This document shows positions 15,652-36,980 of a stretch of 45,138 bases of DNA, in pieces (the stretch's first letter is position 1; each line of letters opens with the position of its first letter). The stretch lies in the IMG/VR virus record IMGVR_UViG_3300000976_000010; one strand, given 5' to 3'. The position numbers were made by a program, and so were the translations under genes. The DNA is from a virus. The notes under the pieces are model-generated. The model was not told where the DNA came from and ran no database searches. It saw only the letters and a list, made by a program, of their open reading frames with translations.

Positions 15652-17328
15652 ATGGCATTAAAAATATTCGACCAATTATCAATAAGAATGAGCAGAATGA
15701 GAACTCAAATAGACGAGTTCTTATCTACTAAATTGGGCTTAAATGATTCAGGAGAAGCGAGAATTTACAAGACAATTCTAGATGTTATTCAGGATATGAA
15801 TAGCTTATCCATGTTATACCAAGCTCAATCCCATAAGCAACTAGCTAAACAAACTGCCACAAAAGCAACATCAATAAGGGGTTTAGCGGCAATATCAGGT
15901 CATAATGCAACACGTCCCATATCCGCTAGGGGAACTGTATTACTAAGGAAGAATGAATCATTTTCTGTAGGTAGCTACTTGAATGTTTCGCCTTCTTCTA
16001 GTCTAATTTGCCAAACTAACAACCTGCCTTATATCGTTAATATTGACACGGAAAAGAAGTATTCCCTATCGACAAATTCACTTGAAATCCCGTTAATACA
16101 AGGTAAAATAAAAACACAGAGTTTTGTTATAGATGCGACTAGTGAAGACACAACACTTTACACAATACGATTGGATGATGAGGAGTATATAGAAAATTAT
16201 TCGATTAAAGTAAAGGTTAACAATGTAATTTGGAAAAAGGCCGATTCTTTATTAGACATGGCCTTTGGTGATTATGAGTACATTATAAAAAACGGTTGGC
16301 AATCTCAGGTAGATCTTATGTTTGGAGATTCTACACACGGAACAGAACTCAAACACGGTGATTTAGTAGAAGTAGAATACTTAGTAACAAACGGAGAGTT
16401 GGGGATATTAACAGCAAGTGACACATTTACAATTGTGGAAGGATTCACCAATTCAAATGGAGACGAATTGACCGATTTCATAATTACTAGAAATAGTGGG
16501 TTTATGTTGGCATCCAATGGGGAGAGAAGTGAGGTAACACGAAATTTAATCGGGTTTAGCTCAAGGTCTTTAACATTTGCGACTCCTCAAAATTTAAAGG
16601 CGTACCTAAGTAGACTTAGTATTTTATCACACATTTCCGTATACTCGGAAAAAAATAACGACCTAATAACCCATGTATTAGCTTTGCCATCGCTCAATTT
16701 CCTTAATAGCAGAGACTATCTAAATACTAGCGAATCATTCTTTAGGTTGAGCACAATACAGAAGAATGCTATAAAGGACATGATTAACAATTCTAGGAGA
16801 CAGTTTCCCTCTTCTGAAATCGTATTGGATGATCCAATCCTTAAAAGATACTCTATGTTGGTGTACATAAGAGGAGAATTTGATGATGATGCTCAAATAA
16901 AAAATGGTATATTGGATAACATATCTGAAATAATGTTGTCAGCAACCTTCAAAAGTATTGACATGAATTTTGATAACAGGATAGTCAATTCTGAATTTGT
17001 TAATTCAATATTCAATATGGATGAAATAGAATCGGTTAAAGTGAACATTTTTTCAGAGGATAATGAACAAGCCAAATATAATGGTTTTTATTTTGTAGAC
17101 GAGACTGTTGTTGAGGGAGCTAGTCGATTAGTAACGTCTGTCAGAAAAGAATTGCGCGATGGTGAAAATCCAAACATAGGTCTAAACAATCTGAATAGTA
17201 TAGTTGTGAGCGATGGCCAAGTTCCAATTTTGAGACCAATTGAACTTTATAGCAATGGAACTCTGAGAAGAGTTAATGATGCTGTTACTGTATTTGTGGA
17301 GCGAAACGGAATATTTAAGCAACTTTAG
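15652..17328 (+). CDS. baseplate wedge subunit, T4 gp6-like
   Basis: TATKATSIRGLAAISGHNATRPISA; LMFGDSTHG...VEVEYLVTNGELG. Confidence 0.85.
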   Translation: MALKIFDQLSIRMSRMRTQIDEFLSTKLGLNDSGEARIYKTILDVIQDMNSLSMLYQAQSHKQLAKQTATKATSIRGLAAISGHNATRPISARGTVLLRKNESFSVGSYLNVSPSSSLICQTNNLPYIVNIDTEKKYSLSTNSLEIPLIQGKIKTQSFVIDATSEDTTLYTIRLDDEEYIENYSIKVKVNNVIWKKADSLLDMAFGDYEYIIKNGWQSQVDLMFGDSTHGTELKHGDLVEVEYLVTNGELGILTASDTFTIVEGFTNSNGDELTDFIITRNSGFMLASNGERSEVTRNLIGFSSRSLTFATPQNLKAYLSRLSILSHISVYSEKNNDLITHVLALPSLNFLNSRDYLNTSESFFRLSTIQKNAIKDMINNSRRQFPSSEIVLDDPILKRYSMLVYIRGEFDDDAQIKNGILDNISEIMLSATFKSIDMNFDNRIVNSEFVNSIFNMDEIESVKVNIFSEDNEQAKYNGFYFVDETVVEGASRLVTSVRKELRDGENPNIGLNNLNSIVVSDGQVPILRPIELYSNGTLRRVNDAVTVFVERNGIFKQL

Positions 17329-17344
17329 AATAATAACTTTAATA

Positions 17345-18277
17345 ATGAGAAACTATTTAAGAAAAATTAGTGAAGAGAGTGGAGCAAAATCTGCTATCAT
17401 GAATTTATTAAAATCGGGAAAAGCAAAAGACATACGCCTAGGATTCAAATTGGATGAAGGCCAAAAAATAGGCGTAGCAAAAGAGCTAAAGCGAAGCTTT
17501 AAAGGCTTACTTAAAACATTGAGGGTAGACATTGAAGAACTTTTTTTGATGAAACGCATGATAATAGATAGAAAGGTTATATCGGATCTGCCCGATGATA
17601 TAGTACTGCTACAGACTTTGGAAGTTATTAAAATAACAAATTGTGAATTAACACATATTCCAAAAAGCATAGGAAAAATGACTAATTTGGTTGAATTGGA
17701 TTTAAGAAACAATGAAATAGAGAAGCTGTCTCAATCCATCGGTAAATTGGAAAATCTACTGACGCTAAATATTAGCGGAAACAGAATTACTAGAATACCA
17801 AAGAGTATAGGCAAACTAAATAAGTTAACGAAAATTGATCTATCTGAGAATAACATAAGAACATTACCCGACTCCCTTGAGGGATTAATTTCACTAGAAG
17901 AATTTTATGCTACCAAAAACAGGCTCTCAAGTCTCCCACAATCCTTCTGCTTAATGCCAAAATTAAAAGTTGTTGGATTGGGTTATAATCAATTAAAGGG
18001 GCTTCCTGATAGCATGGAGGGATTGAAGAAGTTGGAAGTTTTATGGTTGAATCAAAATAAAATTAACTCCTTGCCTGATTCCGTATGTACACTTAAAAGA
18101 CTCAAGGATTTGGATATTCAGGATAACCCAATACCATCTCTTCCTACTAATTTCACTAGACTCGCCAATTTGATAATGTTACAAATAAGTGGCACTAATA
18201 TTGTAATCGCCATGAGCAACATAAAAGAAAAGATGAAAAAATTGCGAATCACTCAAGATAAATCCAATTCAATTTAG
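17345..18277 (+). CDS. leucine-rich repeat protein (about nine 23-aa LRRs)
   Basis: IPKSIGKMTNLVELDLRNNEI-type repeats; ATG 17345 follows the gp6 stop. Confidence 0.9.
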   Translation: MRNYLRKISEESGAKSAIMNLLKSGKAKDIRLGFKLDEGQKIGVAKELKRSFKGLLKTLRVDIEELFLMKRMIIDRKVISDLPDDIVLLQTLEVIKITNCELTHIPKSIGKMTNLVELDLRNNEIEKLSQSIGKLENLLTLNISGNRITRIPKSIGKLNKLTKIDLSENNIRTLPDSLEGLISLEEFYATKNRLSSLPQSFCLMPKLKVVGLGYNQLKGLPDSMEGLKKLEVLWLNQNKINSLPDSVCTLKRLKDLDIQDNPIPSLPTNFTRLANLIMLQISGTNIVIAMSNIKEKMKKLRITQDKSNSI

Positions 18278-18862: not shown

Positions 18863-19486
18863 TTATCGTTTGTTTAAACTCTTCTTCAATAAGTTGATAT
18901 AATCGCTGCTTTGTGGAGTTCCGAAATCATTTATAGCCAAAAACCAATCAATTTTATCCTCCTCGACTATCTTCAAATTGTGATCCTCTTGCACCTCAAA
19001 ACACCTAGGAGTGAAATTTGAAATAACGGTTTGATATTCTTTGGGCAGTTCATTAAAAAAGTAATCATCACCGCCAATATTAATCCTAAAATCACCTTCA
19101 AAAAATTTTAAAAGTGTTAACAGACGTTGCTTCCCATCAATCACCTGACGAATATCTCCATCTCCTTGACTGTTTTTTATTCTGACAACAGATATATAAG
19201 GGATGAAAAAACTAGTTAGCACACTTTCAATTAGTCTAGACCTTTGCTGCTTGTTCCAAACATAAGCACGCTGCAAATTAAGACCTAAAGATGGTAAAAA
19301 TACCTCAAAATCCAATAGACCCTTGTTATATAACTGATACAACATTTTAACATTAGGCATCTGACCCTCCATTCTGTACTTCCATATTCCACTGTCATTA
19401 CGCAAATCTCTAACACTCTTAAGCATAGTCCATGTTTTAAGGCGATTATATAAATTTTCTACACTAGAGTATATCGTTATGTCCAA
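18863..19486 (-). CDS. second stand-alone DUF262 protein
   Basis: NLQRAYVWN and IDGKQRL motifs. Confidence 0.85.
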   Translation of the reverse strand: MDITIYSSVENLYNRLKTWTMLKSVRDLRNDSGIWKYRMEGQMPNVKMLYQLYNKGLLDFEVFLPSLGLNLQRAYVWNKQQRSRLIESVLTSFFIPYISVVRIKNSQGDGDIRQVIDGKQRLLTLLKFFEGDFRINIGGDDYFFNELPKEYQTVISNFTPRCFEVQEDHNLKIVEEDKIDWFLAINDFGTPQSSDYINLLKKSLNKR

Positions 19487-32559: not shown

Positions 32560-33078
32560 ATGATAGACCAATATGGAAATAAAATCGTAATAGGAGAGAT
32601 AACAAGGAGTGATGGTTCAAGGATGCGCCAAAATAAACCAAGTCCAAAGTCTAGATTTGATGAAGGTTGGTATCCACTGTCTGATAAAAACAAATACGTT
32701 GGATTGCAGCCCCCTATACACCGATCATCACTAGAGCGAAGGTTTATGACATGGTGCGAATCTTCCCCTGAAATAAAGGGGTGGGATGCTGAACCTTTTG
32801 CTATTGGATACGCCAAACCCCTAAAGGCAAGCAAGAAAGGCGTTGTGGAGCAAAAGGTTTTTAAGCAGGGGAACTATTATATAGATTTTGTTATATATTG
32901 GAAGAGTGGCGAAACTTGGTTAGTTGAAGTAAAGCCATATTCACAAACAACAAAGGGGAGCAGAGATTTTCCTATAAACAAAATGAAATGGAACTCTGCC
33001 AAAGTATTTTCAAAAAAAAGCGGGTTTAAGTTTATTATAATAACAGAAAATTTTAAGCCCTTAAAGTGGATTAAATAA
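32560..33078 (+). CDS. head completion nuclease, T4 gp4-like (TnsA-like fold)
   Basis: KYVG...RSSLERRFMTWC...YYIDF...VEVKPYSQT...NKMKW. Confidence 0.88.
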   Translation: MIDQYGNKIVIGEITRSDGSRMRQNKPSPKSRFDEGWYPLSDKNKYVGLQPPIHRSSLERRFMTWCESSPEIKGWDAEPFAIGYAKPLKASKKGVVEQKVFKQGNYYIDFVIYWKSGETWLVEVKPYSQTTKGSRDFPINKMKWNSAKVFSKKSGFKFIIITENFKPLKWIK

Positions 33079-33093
33079 GTCCCCTAGTATTTA

Positions 33094-33351
33094 TCAATAT
33101 ATACAAAATTCTATTTTCCTTATATTACATAAATTAAAATCTTCTAAAATTTCATTGAGCGCATACTTATCCTTCCAATGTATAGGATTTAAAAAATCAG
33201 CTATTTCTTTTGGGGATGCTAGGGTTATGTAGCCCTTTTTATCTGAATCGGTTAATAGTATTAAAGCCATACTATTAACCGATTTAGTCAATGTGTAACA
33301 CACCTTTCTGTTGGTTTGATCTTGGTGATAAACTTCTACTTCTAAGTCCAT
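33094..33351 (-). CDS. hypothetical protein
   Basis: ORF track. Confidence 0.6.
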   Translation of the reverse strand: MDLEVEVYHQDQTNRKVCYTLTKSVNSMALILLTDSDKKGYITLASPKEIADFLNPIHWKDKYALNEILEDFNLCNIRKIEFCIY

Positions 33352-33659
33352 GATTTATTATTAAGGCTAAAACTTGATCCTTTTGTGTTCTTAACTCTTC
33401 CCAATTTTGATTTTGTCACGACATTCACATACTCAACAAATTGACTATTTTTGGTCAAAGACCACCCCCTAAAAATTTTTCTACCAATATCAAATGTATC
33501 ATTAGTTGGAAGACTTAGCAGTATTGATATAAAAAGCTTGTCTTCGTAAATTTCAAAATCCAAATCATATTCGCCCACGACTGACTTAATATGTGCATGA
33601 ATTTCTTCAATGATAGGACTCAAATTATTATTTATGATAAATTGCTCTATGTTGTTCAT
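33342..33659 (-). CDS. hypothetical protein
   Basis: ORF overlapping the end of the LRR gene. Confidence 0.6.
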   Translation of the reverse strand: MNNIEQFIINNNLSPIIEEIHAHIKSVVGEYDLDFEIYEDKLFISILLSLPTNDTFDIGRKIFRGWSLTKNSQFVEYVNVVTKSKLGRVKNTKGSSFSLNNKSWT

Positions 33660-34245
33660 GTTGATTGGTAGGATAATTTTTTACAATTTTATTTAGGTTT
33701 TTAAGTGTGCTGTCTGATTGGGGAATATTATTCCCCTCTGCATAAAAATAACCCAAATATTTTAGCTTATCTAGGTCAGGAGGCAGAATTGATATATTGT
33801 TATTGCTCAAATTTAAAATACCAAGTTTGCTTAAATTGCATATTGAATTGGGCAGTTCTTTTATTCTGTTATGATTCAATCTCAATCTAACAAGGTTTCT
33901 CAATTCACCCAATTCTTTGGGAATCGTCTCAATGCTGTTGTACGACAAATCCAAATCTGTTAAATTTTTTAGCTTGAATAATGAGGGGGGAATATATGAA
34001 ATATCTTTAAAATTAATTCTAAGTATTGTCTTTTCAAAACATTTTCTTATTCCTGTTTTCACTCTTATTCCACTAAACTCTTCACGGTAATCTCCCAACC
34101 ACCTTATCAATTCCTTCCACTCCTGATAACTCTTTAGTTTGTTGAATGCTATTCCCTGACTCTTACAAAGCGCGGAGGCCAACTCCACATTTTCGGCCTT
34201 TCCTGAGTTTACTAGATTGTTAAGGCGTTCTAAAGTTTCGTTCAT
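33628..34245 (-). CDS. leucine-rich repeat protein
   Basis: IPKELGELRNLVRLRLNHNRI-type repeats; N-cap LNNLVNSGKAENVELA. Confidence 0.9.
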   Translation of the reverse strand: MNETLERLNNLVNSGKAENVELASALCKSQGIAFNKLKSYQEWKELIRWLGDYREEFSGIRVKTGIRKCFEKTILRINFKDISYIPPSLFKLKNLTDLDLSYNSIETIPKELGELRNLVRLRLNHNRIKELPNSICNLSKLGILNLSNNNISILPPDLDKLKYLGYFYAEGNNIPQSDSTLKNLNKIVKNYPTNQHEQHRAIYHK

Positions 34246-34248
34246 GAT

Positions 34249-34926
34249 TTATAGAATTCGGGTGTTTATTTGTCTATCGACATTAACGCCCATATTTTTT
34301 AATTCATCTAGTACCTCTGCTGTTGTTGGGTCTGTTAGGTCTAGAGGATTCTCTTCAACACCAATCCAAGTTAAGTTTTTCAATTTTCCAATTGATTTGG
34401 GCAGAACTTTTATTTGGTTGTTGTTTAAGTAAATCCACCCTAGATTTACTAAGTTTCCAATTGAATCGGGAAGGTGTTCTAATCGGTTGCTGTCTAGTTT
34501 AAGAATTTTTAAATTAATCAATTTTCCAATTGAATCGGGCAAAAGTTTTAATTTGTTTTCTCTTAACCAAATCGCTTCTAAATTTACCAAATTACCAATT
34601 GAATCAGGCAAAAGGCTTAGTCGATTGTTACTTAAATTGATTTCTTTTAATTTTATCAATTTACCAATTTCTTCGGGAAGTGATTTTATTTTTTCACCGT
34701 GCAAAGCAAGATAGTCTATATTGATAGCCTTCACCAATCCCTCTTTAATATCATCATAACCATCTAGATAATTGCTCAACCACTTAATGATAAGAGCGTA
34801 ATGCTGTACACGCTCAAGATCTTCAAAATTTATCCCTCGACTCTCACAGAGCATAAAGGCCAAATCTATATTTTCGTCTGTTCCCGACTTTACTAAGTCG
34901 TTTAGTTTTTCTAATGTTTCTTCCAT
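34249..34926 (-). CDS. leucine-rich repeat protein
   Basis: LPDSIGNLVNL repeats; N-cap LNDLVKSGTDENIDLA. Confidence 0.92.
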   Translation of the reverse strand: MEETLEKLNDLVKSGTDENIDLAFMLCESRGINFEDLERVQHYALIIKWLSNYLDGYDDIKEGLVKAINIDYLALHGEKIKSLPEEIGKLIKLKEINLSNNRLSLLPDSIGNLVNLEAIWLRENKLKLLPDSIGKLINLKILKLDSNRLEHLPDSIGNLVNLGWIYLNNNQIKVLPKSIGKLKNLTWIGVEENPLDLTDPTTAEVLDELKNMGVNVDRQINTRIL

Positions 34927-35334
34927 AATGCTTGAGTAAATAATCTAAAAGTTATAAATTGGGCTATTATTCGGATAATCCAAATTAGTGTCCAATACGA
35001 AAAATTTCCCATCGTATCCATAAGGGTGTGCATTTTCAAAGCTCTGCACCTCATCGCCAAGTAGTATTTGAATGTCCACACTTTCCAAATCCTCCCTACT
35101 TTAAATTCCCTATAACAGTCAAAGTCTGTATCCCTTTCCATTAACAGAGTTCTTTTTTGTTGAAATAGTAAGTAACGAGAAAACAGCATGGATTTTATGG
35201 CATACTGCATTTTTTTTTCTGTCTTCAAAAAGCATGAAATCGACCCCCTTCTTACCTTTAAATACTTGAAAAAGCGTGCCCAATACACCCATCCATGTTT
35301 TATGATAAAAACCATCGTTTACAATAATTCCCAA
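34911..35334 (-). pseudogene. gene split by a frameshift in an A9 run
   Basis: MGIIVND...FEDRKK joins MQYAIKS... if the run at 35210-35218 is one base shorter. Confidence 0.55.
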
Positions 35335-35364
35335 TTTTACATTTTGATTATTATTTATCTTTTT

Positions 35365-36006
35365 TTAGATTAATATGTTAACTCCCCTTTCTTTTAGAAT
35401 TTTAATTGAATAACAGCGATTAGAAATATCAGTATATTGTAAATCCAACACCGCAAGACAATTCATATTACACAAACCGTTCGGGAGATAACTTATACTA
35501 TTAAAACTAATATCAATGTGTTCTAAATTGCGTAGAATCCCCAATTCATCAGGAATAAAGGTTAGATTATTACTCGTTAACACCAAGTCTGTTAGTTTTT
35601 GTAATAGACCAATTTCCTTTGGGATTTCCGTTATCTGATTGTTATACAAATCGAGCACCTCAAGATTGAGTAGTTTTGATATATCCTTTGGAATTTTATC
35701 TATATCAGTGTTGATTATAAATAGTGACCTTAAATTTCTTAAATTAAATAAAGCTTGGGGCATTTTTTTAATAGCGTAATTACTATTCCAAAGTACTTTA
35801 ATTCTCATAAAATGATTTACTGAATTTTGAAAATTTATCAGACCCGATCCACTTTCATACTCACACATTTCAAACAGTTCAAACCAATCCATAACAGACT
35901 CCAAAGCCCAAAAATTTAACCCACCCTTCACACATTCATCATGTGCCTTTTTAATGTTATCAACACATCCCGTGCTTACTAATAAATTCAGTTCTTTGTT
36001 TTCCAT
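35365..36006 (-). CDS. leucine-rich repeat protein
   Basis: IPKEIGLLQKLTDLVLTSNNL-type repeats; N-cap LNLLVSTGCVDNIKKA. Confidence 0.9.
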   Translation of the reverse strand: MENKELNLLVSTGCVDNIKKAHDECVKGGLNFWALESVMDWFELFEMCEYESGSGLINFQNSVNHFMRIKVLWNSNYAIKKMPQALFNLRNLRSLFIINTDIDKIPKDISKLLNLEVLDLYNNQITEIPKEIGLLQKLTDLVLTSNNLTFIPDELGILRNLEHIDISFNSISYLPNGLCNMNCLAVLDLQYTDISNRCYSIKILKERGVNILI

Positions 36007-36126
36007 GAAATTTTTACTTTTTTTAATTTATTTACAATGACTTATCCACTCTTCATTTTCCACAAACCCAATATACAACAAATAAACGAGTAAACCAAAA
36101 GTACATAGCATATATAATCAAAAACC

Positions 36127-36675
36127 ATGAAATTTAGTAAAATAATAAAGAACAAAGCTTTCAGAGAAAGCGTGTTCCCCAATCTAATTGAACACCACTT
36201 AAAGAATGAAATTGCTATAAGTAATAGCCCACTTAGGTTGGGCAGTTCTTCATTCAATGAGTATGTGTATGTTGTCAGAAGGCTGCATGAGGAAGGATTG
36301 TATACGCCCATTAATTCGGAGGATATGTTTATCTTGGAAAAACTTGACACAGGAAAAGTCGGTTTTTATAAAGGGGAGAAGGTTATTTTAGATACACCAT
36401 TCTTACTAAAGAATGAGCGCAAAGAATTCGGAGTATATAGGGCTAATAAAGAGGGGAAGAAGGATAAGGGCGGAAATATAAAGGCGGTGGTTGTTAAGTG
36501 GGGAGATCCGAAATTGCGTGTTAAAAACGAGGACAAAGACGCGAGTGAATCTTTTTGGGCTAGACATCGCTGCGATCTAAAGACGGATAAATATAAAGCA
36601 GGGTGGTGGGCTTGCTACGCACCTCAATATTTTGGAGACTTATTAAAATTGGTGGGAGGGAAATCAAAATGGTAA
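36127..36675 (+). CDS. late phage protein (WGDP...SFWARHRC...AGWWAC)
   Basis: GTACATA 36101-36107; distinctive His/Cys/Trp motif. Confidence 0.7.
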   Translation: MKFSKIIKNKAFRESVFPNLIEHHLKNEIAISNSPLRLGSSSFNEYVYVVRRLHEEGLYTPINSEDMFILEKLDTGKVGFYKGEKVILDTPFLLKNERKEFGVYRANKEGKKDKGGNIKAVVVKWGDPKLRVKNEDKDASESFWARHRCDLKTDKYKAGWWACYAPQYFGDLLKLVGGKSKW

Positions 36676-36980
36676 GTCTACAGGATTTATTTGAAAGCTC
36701 TGAATTGATTGATGGTCTATATCAAGAAATTTTGATTGGTGGTGTTAAGGTTAGAAAGTTTTCAAAATTAACAGAAATTTCATCATTGGTTTGGCATACA
36801 GATGAAAGTGACAGGTATATAAGTGTGCTACACTCGGATGGTTGGTTGTTTCAATATGATAACGAATTGCCATTTGTACTAGGGAAGGGTGATTTATTTA
36901 TGGTAGGTGAGGGAACGTATCACAGAGTCTTGAGTGGGGATAGCGATGGGGATTTGATTGTGGGAATTTTTGAGGGGTAG
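36669..36980 (+). CDS. small cupin-like protein
   Basis: WHTDESDR...GW...LGKGDLFMVGEGTYHRV; start ATG 36669 overlaps the previous stop. Confidence 0.65.
   Translation: MVSLQDLFESSELIDGLYQEILIGGVKVRKFSKLTEISSLVWHTDESDRYISVLHSDGWLFQYDNELPFVLGKGDLFMVGEGTYHRVLSGDSDGDLIVGIFEG

Follow-up and report, generated by a model that had tools for sequence, protein, structure and literature searches.

Small leucine-rich repeat proteins of an uncultured jumbo phage as a candidate lineage-specific family of intracellular binders

What might a tailed phage gain from carrying several small leucine-rich repeat (LRR) proteins? The question is raised by a 45,138-nucleotide stretch of DNA (the window), the last 45 kb of the 137,393-bp IMG/VR record IMGVR_UViG_3300000976_000010 (34% G+C, estimated completeness 37%), in which three LRR genes lie on the minus strand at 33628-36006 and a fourth on the plus strand at 17345-18277. 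We propose that the four genes are members of one multigene family, specific to this phage lineage, whose products are small and soluble LRR proteins, and that the trio acts in the host cytoplasm from a transcription unit that is not late, a reading to which we give a probability of roughly 50%. Each protein consists of three parts: a ~70-residue N-terminal domain of four helices (N-domain), 5-9 repeats of the 23-residue SHOC2/Leptospira type, and a helix-strand C-terminal cap (C-cap). The helical domain probably caps the first repeat and may dock on a shared partner as well. The exposed residues of the repeats differ between copies, so that the protein bound is probably a different one for each copy. 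The trio, probably transcribed as one unit, would act on proteins of the host or of rival elements in the cytoplasm of the infected cell, in the service of host takeover or counter-defense. Gene 4 would be a separate, conserved late gene behind a baseplate wedge gene, possibly encoding a part of the virion.

The original prediction had placed four LRR open reading frames (ORFs) here, and both the ORF calls and Pfam agreed with it. All four exceed the Pfam cut-offs for LRR_8 and LRR_14, with E values of 1e-16 to 1e-30, which makes them members of the LRR superfamily. Gene 3 (35365-36006, minus strand, 213 residues) begins with an N-domain at 35791-36006, followed by ~5 LRRs and a terminal LKERGVNI (LRR_8, E 8.9e-18). 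Gene 2 (34249-34926, minus strand, 225 residues) has a four-helix N-domain (residues 2-69), six LRR strands, and a C-cap, and gene 1 (33628-34245, minus strand, 205 residues), which starts 3 nt past the gene 2 stop, ends in a variant C-terminal tail. Gene 4 (17345-18277, plus strand, 310 residues) carries ~8-9 LRRs and a divergent N-terminal motif, and it starts 16 nt past the baseplate wedge gene (15652-17328, plus strand; phrog_219, E 6.7e-17). The trio had been described as tandem. This holds for genes 1 and 2, which are 3 nt apart, but not for genes 2 and 3, which have a unique 438-nt spacer between them.

The 23-residue repeat pattern that had been read from these genes was also borne out. 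Aligned with one another, 50 repeats drawn from the eight LRR genes of the contig gave the unit xxLxxLxLxxNxLxxLPxSIGxL, in which positions 3, 6, 8, 11, 13, 16, 17, and 23 were nearly fixed, partly because the repeats were picked by a regular expression that itself fixes the hydrophobic, Asn, and Pro framework. The most variable positions were 1, 5, 7, 9, 14, and 15, and a 69-nt period was detectable in the DNA of gene 2. The common C-cap proved equally real: its pattern, NPLD..T....L+..GVN, is present in copies outside the window too. As had been claimed, the four window proteins showed no sign of a signal peptide, membrane segment, or catalytic domain. Their maximum 19-residue Kyte-Doolittle mean was below 1.5 with no N-terminal hydrophobic run, Pfam returned LRR families only, and no PADLOC defense profile matched at E <= 0.01.

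At the other end of these proteins, the 16-residue helix motif noticed earlier turned out to be the start of the ~70-residue N-domain rather than a single helix. The motif had been taken as common to all four genes. For the trio this was upheld by pairwise comparison of the N-domain of gene 2 with those of gene 1 (E 3e-20) and gene 3 (E 1e-5). By contrast, the N-terminus of gene 4 was not significantly similar to that of gene 2 (E 0.77) and did not match a trio-type profile (E 0.84, and 0.0036 after iteration). It could be connected to the family when gene 4 was combined with its two orthologues into a profile and this was aligned to the 21-sequence family profile (hhalign probability 94%, E 1.1e-7, 44 columns). 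Because this profile-profile match is the only link, we regard gene 4 as a divergent homologue and a distant family member.

To describe the architecture, we used an AlphaFold2 model of gene 2, run with a 22-sequence family alignment, which had a predicted local distance difference test score (pLDDT) of 96 and a predicted template-modeling (TM) score, pTM, of 0.89. The model contains helices at residues 2-14, 17-29, 38-50, and 60-69, then six LRR strands at 23-residue spacing, and finally a C-cap made of a helix (200-211) and a strand (215-217). Gene 2 is predicted to form a curved-solenoid LRR fold with one strand per repeat. Within the whole protein, the N-domain reached a pLDDT of ~98; when it was folded alone, its four helices were kept, with residues 51-70 at only ~60. 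This loss fits packing of the N-domain on the first repeat, and the model suggests that the domain probably seals that repeat.

The N-domain occurs in no domain catalogue, and no solved structure resembles it. A Foldseek search of its fold against the PDB gave no match at E <= 0.001, the best VIA-align result was a Z of 4.7 among assorted helical proteins, and the ESM Atlas returned TM scores of ~0.5 to clamp-loader domain III and the AraC helix-turn-helix. We dismissed all of these as generic helical likeness. As a separate observation, P0007, a 1242-residue protein on a 167-kb metagenome contig, has ~14 tandem repeats of ~33 residues (..DNLPLAE.LCTDKELDF..) that belong to no Pfam family and resemble helix 2 of the N-domain and the loop that follows it, Cys included.

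By contrast, the remainder of the gene 2 model is closely matched by solved LRR domains (Z 20-24.5; for SHOC2 and LIC11098, rmsd ~2.2 Å, 154-158 residues, and 32-35% identity). Residues 66-225 align to human SHOC2, at its C-terminal end (Z 24.5, root-mean-square deviation [rmsd] 2.2 Å over 154 residues), and Leptospira LIC11098 follows with a Z of 23.6. The solenoid with a helix-strand C-cap is common to the phage proteins and SHOC2, Rsu1, SDS22, LRRC8, and the Leptospira LIC/LSS proteins (PDB 9btn, 4u08, 4tzh, 7lt9). However, none of the solved LRR proteins covers model residues 1-65, so that they lack the four-helix N-domain. LRR proteins of the SHOC2/Leptospira type are protein-binding scaffolds without enzymatic activity; those of Leptospira are secreted or lipoproteins, internalins are secreted or displayed on the surface, and SHOC2 has ~20 repeats. 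The phage proteins differ in being of a cytoplasmic type, with 5-9 repeats, and encoded by a virus. Internalin, YopM, and IpaH carry a secretion signal and repeats of 20 or 22 residues, whereas the phage repeats have 23 residues and no signal peptide precedes them; internalins were generic LRR matches to the gene 2 model (Z ~19).

We compared gene 2 with eight close relatives, assigning positions by the register of the model. The N-domain and the scaffold positions were conserved, at 54% and 61% identity, compared with 26% in the C-cap, 25% at exposed convex positions, and 17% at exposed concave positions. The description of a diversified set with a constant cap and a variable face, made before these values were available, is therefore a fair one. 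The concave face of gene 2 bears Y72, W120, W164, Y166, and W187, and aromatic-rich faces are common at the ligand-binding surfaces of LRR proteins.

The source virus is an uncultured, T4-like jumbo phage and, as its genes show, a tailed one. Within the phage collection, the best matches of its DNA polymerase were the jumbo Tenacibaculum phages pT24, PTm1, and PTm5, a Flavobacterium phage, and several "huge phage" assemblies. Its nearest cultured kin infect Flavobacteriia. A megablast search for close DNA relatives, with 10 kb of sequence against the phage collection, gave no match. A complete relative with terminal repeats, IMGVR_UViG_3300005056_000001 (368,109 bp), has a polymerase that is 59% identical, and the core proteins of the two phages are only ~60-70% identical. 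The flanks of the trio are syntenic with 185-190 kb of this 368-kb relative.

The LRR genes are numerous in both phages. The contig holds eight intact genes, which make up 4.9% of its DNA, along with one copy that is truncated where the contig ends and some decayed pieces. The 368-kb relative has 28 LRR frames, with the N-terminal motif in ~17 ORFs. It also has an LRR subfamily with repeats of 22 residues, at 65-71 kb and 99-110 kb (L033, L034, L035), in several members of which the N-terminal motif is reduced to its first ~30 residues. In a maximum-likelihood tree, the trio, the copy at contig position 36,972, and six metagenome proteins formed a clade (support 98/99) that includes no member from the 368-kb relative, which has well-supported LRR expansions of its own. 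Gene 4 grouped instead with two genes behind the wedge gene of the relative (support 87/92). Branches in this tree are long (~1 change per site) and its bootstrap was short of full convergence; we use only the starred and near-starred groupings. Paralogues are 30-50% identical to one another. On this sequence evidence, the trio belongs to a lineage-specific clade within a family of fast-diverging paralogues.

Beyond these two genomes, the family appears sparse. An exhaustive search of 1.84 billion representative proteins with an N-domain hidden Markov model returned 19 matches at E <= 1e-3, mostly small proteins composed of an N-domain and LRRs. All 10 of the matches that we looked up were singletons on metagenome contigs, and none came from a named bacterial genome. 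One 27.5-kb metagenome contig held five family members, four of which were among the 19. A word-index search with the N-domain found only two proteins, and one with a broad 21-sequence alignment found no longer proteins containing the domain, though this is weak evidence. No match was obtained when viral contigs were scanned with the N-domain, gene 2, and P0024, or metagenome contigs with P0024, and near relatives may be missing from those sets. With tblastn, the LRR protein was matched in three of 50,697 phage records.

These searches bear on an alternative in which the genes were captured recently from the host and imitate its LRR proteins; such mimicry had also been suggested. The LRR part does resemble bacterial "SHOC2-like" LRR proteins. 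However, the best cellular matches were confined to the LRR part, spanning roughly one-half to two-thirds of the query. Most were ~35-55% identical, with nothing near-identical, and they were widely scattered taxonomically, with cyanobacteria, Asgard archaea, and animals among their sources. Such a spread is expected of consensus-like repeats and not of recent capture. The lack of any named bacterial genome among the 10 N-domain matches looked up, and of a signal peptide like those of Leptospira LIC proteins and internalins, points the same way, and no bacterial genome was seen to encode the complete protein, N-domain and LRRs together, at high identity. We therefore consider capture very improbable and find no support for mimicry; the results favor the other part of the original prediction, a phage-specific expansion.

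The copies are also replaced over time. Directly behind an intact copy, contig positions 37,737-38,625 contain decayed LRR copies (L012, L017, L019), interrupted by several stop codons (TAA, TAG, and TGA), and an isolated piece of N-domain. LRR genes are present in the syntenic region of the 368-kb relative as well, but at other insertion points and from other clades. Taken together, the decayed copies and the differing insertion points and clades show birth-and-death turnover. Elsewhere on the contig, at 81842-82658 (L006, L018), a 217-residue LRR gene without an N-domain is preceded by an 83-residue LRR-like piece in another frame; the two are possibly one frameshifted gene.

Turnover of this kind could also arise if the helical domain were only a structural end-cap and the copies were selfish or nearly neutral cassettes in accessory regions, with no coordinated repertoire of binders. 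The multi-stop copies at 37.7-38.6 kb, the lineage-specific expansions with long branches, the shifting insertion points in otherwise syntenic DNA, and invariant N-domain residues that look structural would all suit such cassettes. Yet most copies retain intact frames, the family takes up ~5% or more of the DNA in two phages as diverged as these, and within the trio clade the N-domain is conserved over its full length (54%) and not just at core positions. On balance, we think this explanation unlikely.

In both phages, the most enriched 7-mer upstream of genes was GTACATA (71 occurrences against 4.9 expected). It lies 10-25 nt ahead of the wedge gene (15632) and of other start codons (10691 and 36101 on the plus strand; 14462, 21417, and 31629 on the minus strand; and others), and we treat it as a putative late-promoter word. 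None of the 33 LRR genes of the two phages has GTACATA within 150 nt upstream. The trio unit, which runs from a divergent intergenic region upstream of gene 3 (36007-36126) to a hairpin at 33246-33284, has no copy on its own strand; the sole GTACATA in the divergent region (36101) faces the opposite gene at 36127. By contrast, gene 4 follows the wedge gene, which has the word in front, and we found no terminator-like site between the wedge gene end (17328) and gene 4. From these positions we infer that gene 4 is expressed late, whereas the trio is not. A scan for sigma-70 promoters gave no more sites than shuffled sequence, and the Bacteroidota -7 word TAnnTTTG lies upstream of only a few LRR genes.

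Gene 4 had been counted as simply one more copy, and this did not hold. In the 368-kb relative, two orthologues (G1_212904 and G1_213865) sit behind the wedge gene in the same layout, with two LRR genes in place of one, so that gene 4 represents a separate orthogroup kept at this site in both phages. Its expression is probably late, and its product may be a virion component. In all three wedge-linked LRR proteins, an I-x-E occurs among the first 6-10 residues (ISE, ITE, IVE; window 17345-17375, L040:13576-13845, and L040:14300-14569). This motif has the shape of a T4 prohead-protease site, though it may be due to chance.

This placement is an argument for our main rival explanation, in which the LRR proteins are carried by the virion, either as receptor-binding or decoration proteins of the baseplate or fiber or packed in the head and injected, with the N-domain docking or loading them and the LRRs forming a variable binding end. 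Gene 4 and its orthologues directly follow the wedge gene, in a unit headed by GTACATA in both phages, and it is for gene 4 that the explanation is strongest. In phage receptor-binding proteins, the N-terminal module is usually constant and the C-terminal binding domain variable, and the N-domain/LRR layout matches this design. A parallel exists in phage Goslar, where N-terminal DUF7941 modules are followed by LRR/beta-helix domains proposed for host recognition (bioRxiv 10.64898/2026.04.21.720040). For the trio, however, several features speak against a place in the virion: its unit lacks the late-promoter word, no oligomerization or fiber-like segment is present, and the proteins are merely 205-242 residues long.

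Injection from the head would invite comparison with the T4 internal proteins (IPI-III, Alt), which are small, variable, and thought to act on host proteins and bear a capsid-targeting leader. In T4 this leader ends in an (L/I)xE site. By contrast, the trio has neither a separable leader of ~10 residues nor such a site. Its proteins start M-x-E-T-L-E or M-E-N-K-E-L, reading T-L-E where the T4 kind of site would be sought, and, rather than forming a free leader, this start is built into helix 1, in a domain that is well packed (pLDDT 90-98). Only the gene-4 orthogroup has a conserved I-x-E. Overall, we regard carriage in the virion as possible but clearly less probable than action of the trio inside the cell.

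The proposal that the trio encodes intracellular, anti-host binders is plausible, with action inside the cell and neutralization of defenses being suggested by the absence of both a signal peptide and the late-promoter word. Still, several observations weigh against it. Concave positions are barely more variable than convex ones (17% vs. 25%), as in any LRR family. Several LRR genes of the 368-kb relative sit 0.5-2 kb downstream of a GTACATA, and a missing promoter word is by itself no proof of early expression. Comparing both phages, we found no partner gene kept beside the family. Finally, the residues that are invariant in the wider N-domain alignment (L11, N19, and I20) look structural, which makes any docking role for the cap speculative. 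We nonetheless note one such role, in which the four-helix domain would be a docking handle that plugs interchangeable LRR "receptors" into a common phage machine, such as the baseplate, a shared effector, or a protease. We think this improbable; if true, it would constitute a modular, fast-evolving repertoire for target recognition and a bacterial-virus analogue of F-box/LRR substrate receptors or variable lymphocyte receptors.

The remaining features of the locus concern the limits of the trio unit. The spacer between genes 3 and 2 (34927-35364, minus strand, 438 nt) gave only self-hits with tblastx against both phage genomes, and no LRR remnant was found in it. It includes a possible 47-residue ORF (34945-35088, minus strand) of protein-like composition, which has no relatives in either phage. 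A 105-residue ORF (33342-33659, minus strand) overlaps the end of gene 1 and is probably the last gene of the unit; it had no Pfam or PHROG match and only a self-hit by tblastn. The hairpin at 33246-33284 lies 58 nt past the end of this ORF, with a perfect 16-bp stem and a 7-nt loop (-15.6 kcal/mol, z -6.1). It is among only ~9 perfect hairpins of >=12 bp in the 137-kb contig and probably marks the end of the unit. The hairpin falls inside a doubtful 85-residue ORF (33094-33351), and a plus-strand terminator-like site adjoins it at 33221-33245; the region around 33221-33284 looks like convergent transcription ends.

Two other neighbors were noted. A TnsA-like/PDDEXK endonuclease gene (32560-33078, plus strand, E 5e-13) adjoins the trio and is kept at the syntenic place in the 368-kb relative with 54% identity. 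Near the baseplate operon, a 207-residue protein (18863-19486, minus strand) has a GmrSD_N (DUF262) domain (E 1.2e-16), which is the N-terminal half of a type IV restriction-like enzyme.

How does this family compare with LRR proteins of other viruses? Giant viruses, including Klosneuvirus, Bodo saltans virus, Tupanvirus, and Bathycoccus viruses, likewise encode large paralogue families of small LRR proteins, and giant-virus LRR proteins were the best viral structural matches (Foldseek E 1e-12 to 1e-8), with a tailed phage accounting for just one of the top 50 viral matches. However, giant viruses infect eukaryotes, and some of their copies have an F-box that plugs into host ubiquitin ligases, whereas the present family is encoded by a tailed phage and has an N-terminal module that Pfam does not match. 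Neither Pfam F-box family (PF00646, PF12937) matched at E <= 0.01, a threshold at which remote likeness is still possible. Among phages, LRR segments are shared with the "leucine rich repeat protein" of Leptospira phage LE1 type, with PHROG families 6688 and 21719, which have no annotated function, and with the huge phage LR756500, but only the repeats were matched (phrog_6688, E 1e-24 to 1e-45). LR756500 has ~11 LRR places but no N-domain match. Our literature searches turned up LRR families of giant eukaryotic viruses and, in phages, single LRR domains within fiber-like proteins (for example in Goslar and a vibriophage); none of the papers found described an expanded LRR family in a tailed phage.

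LRR proteins are general-purpose binding scaffolds, and this phage lineage spends ~5% or more of its genome on them and keeps replacing the copies. Such an investment, together with the replacement of copies, points to strong selection for recognizing many changing targets. The compact design of a cap plus LRRs, which is predicted at very high confidence, offers a ready natural binder scaffold. The targets themselves could reveal mechanisms of host takeover or counter-defense, or of recognition at the virion surface.

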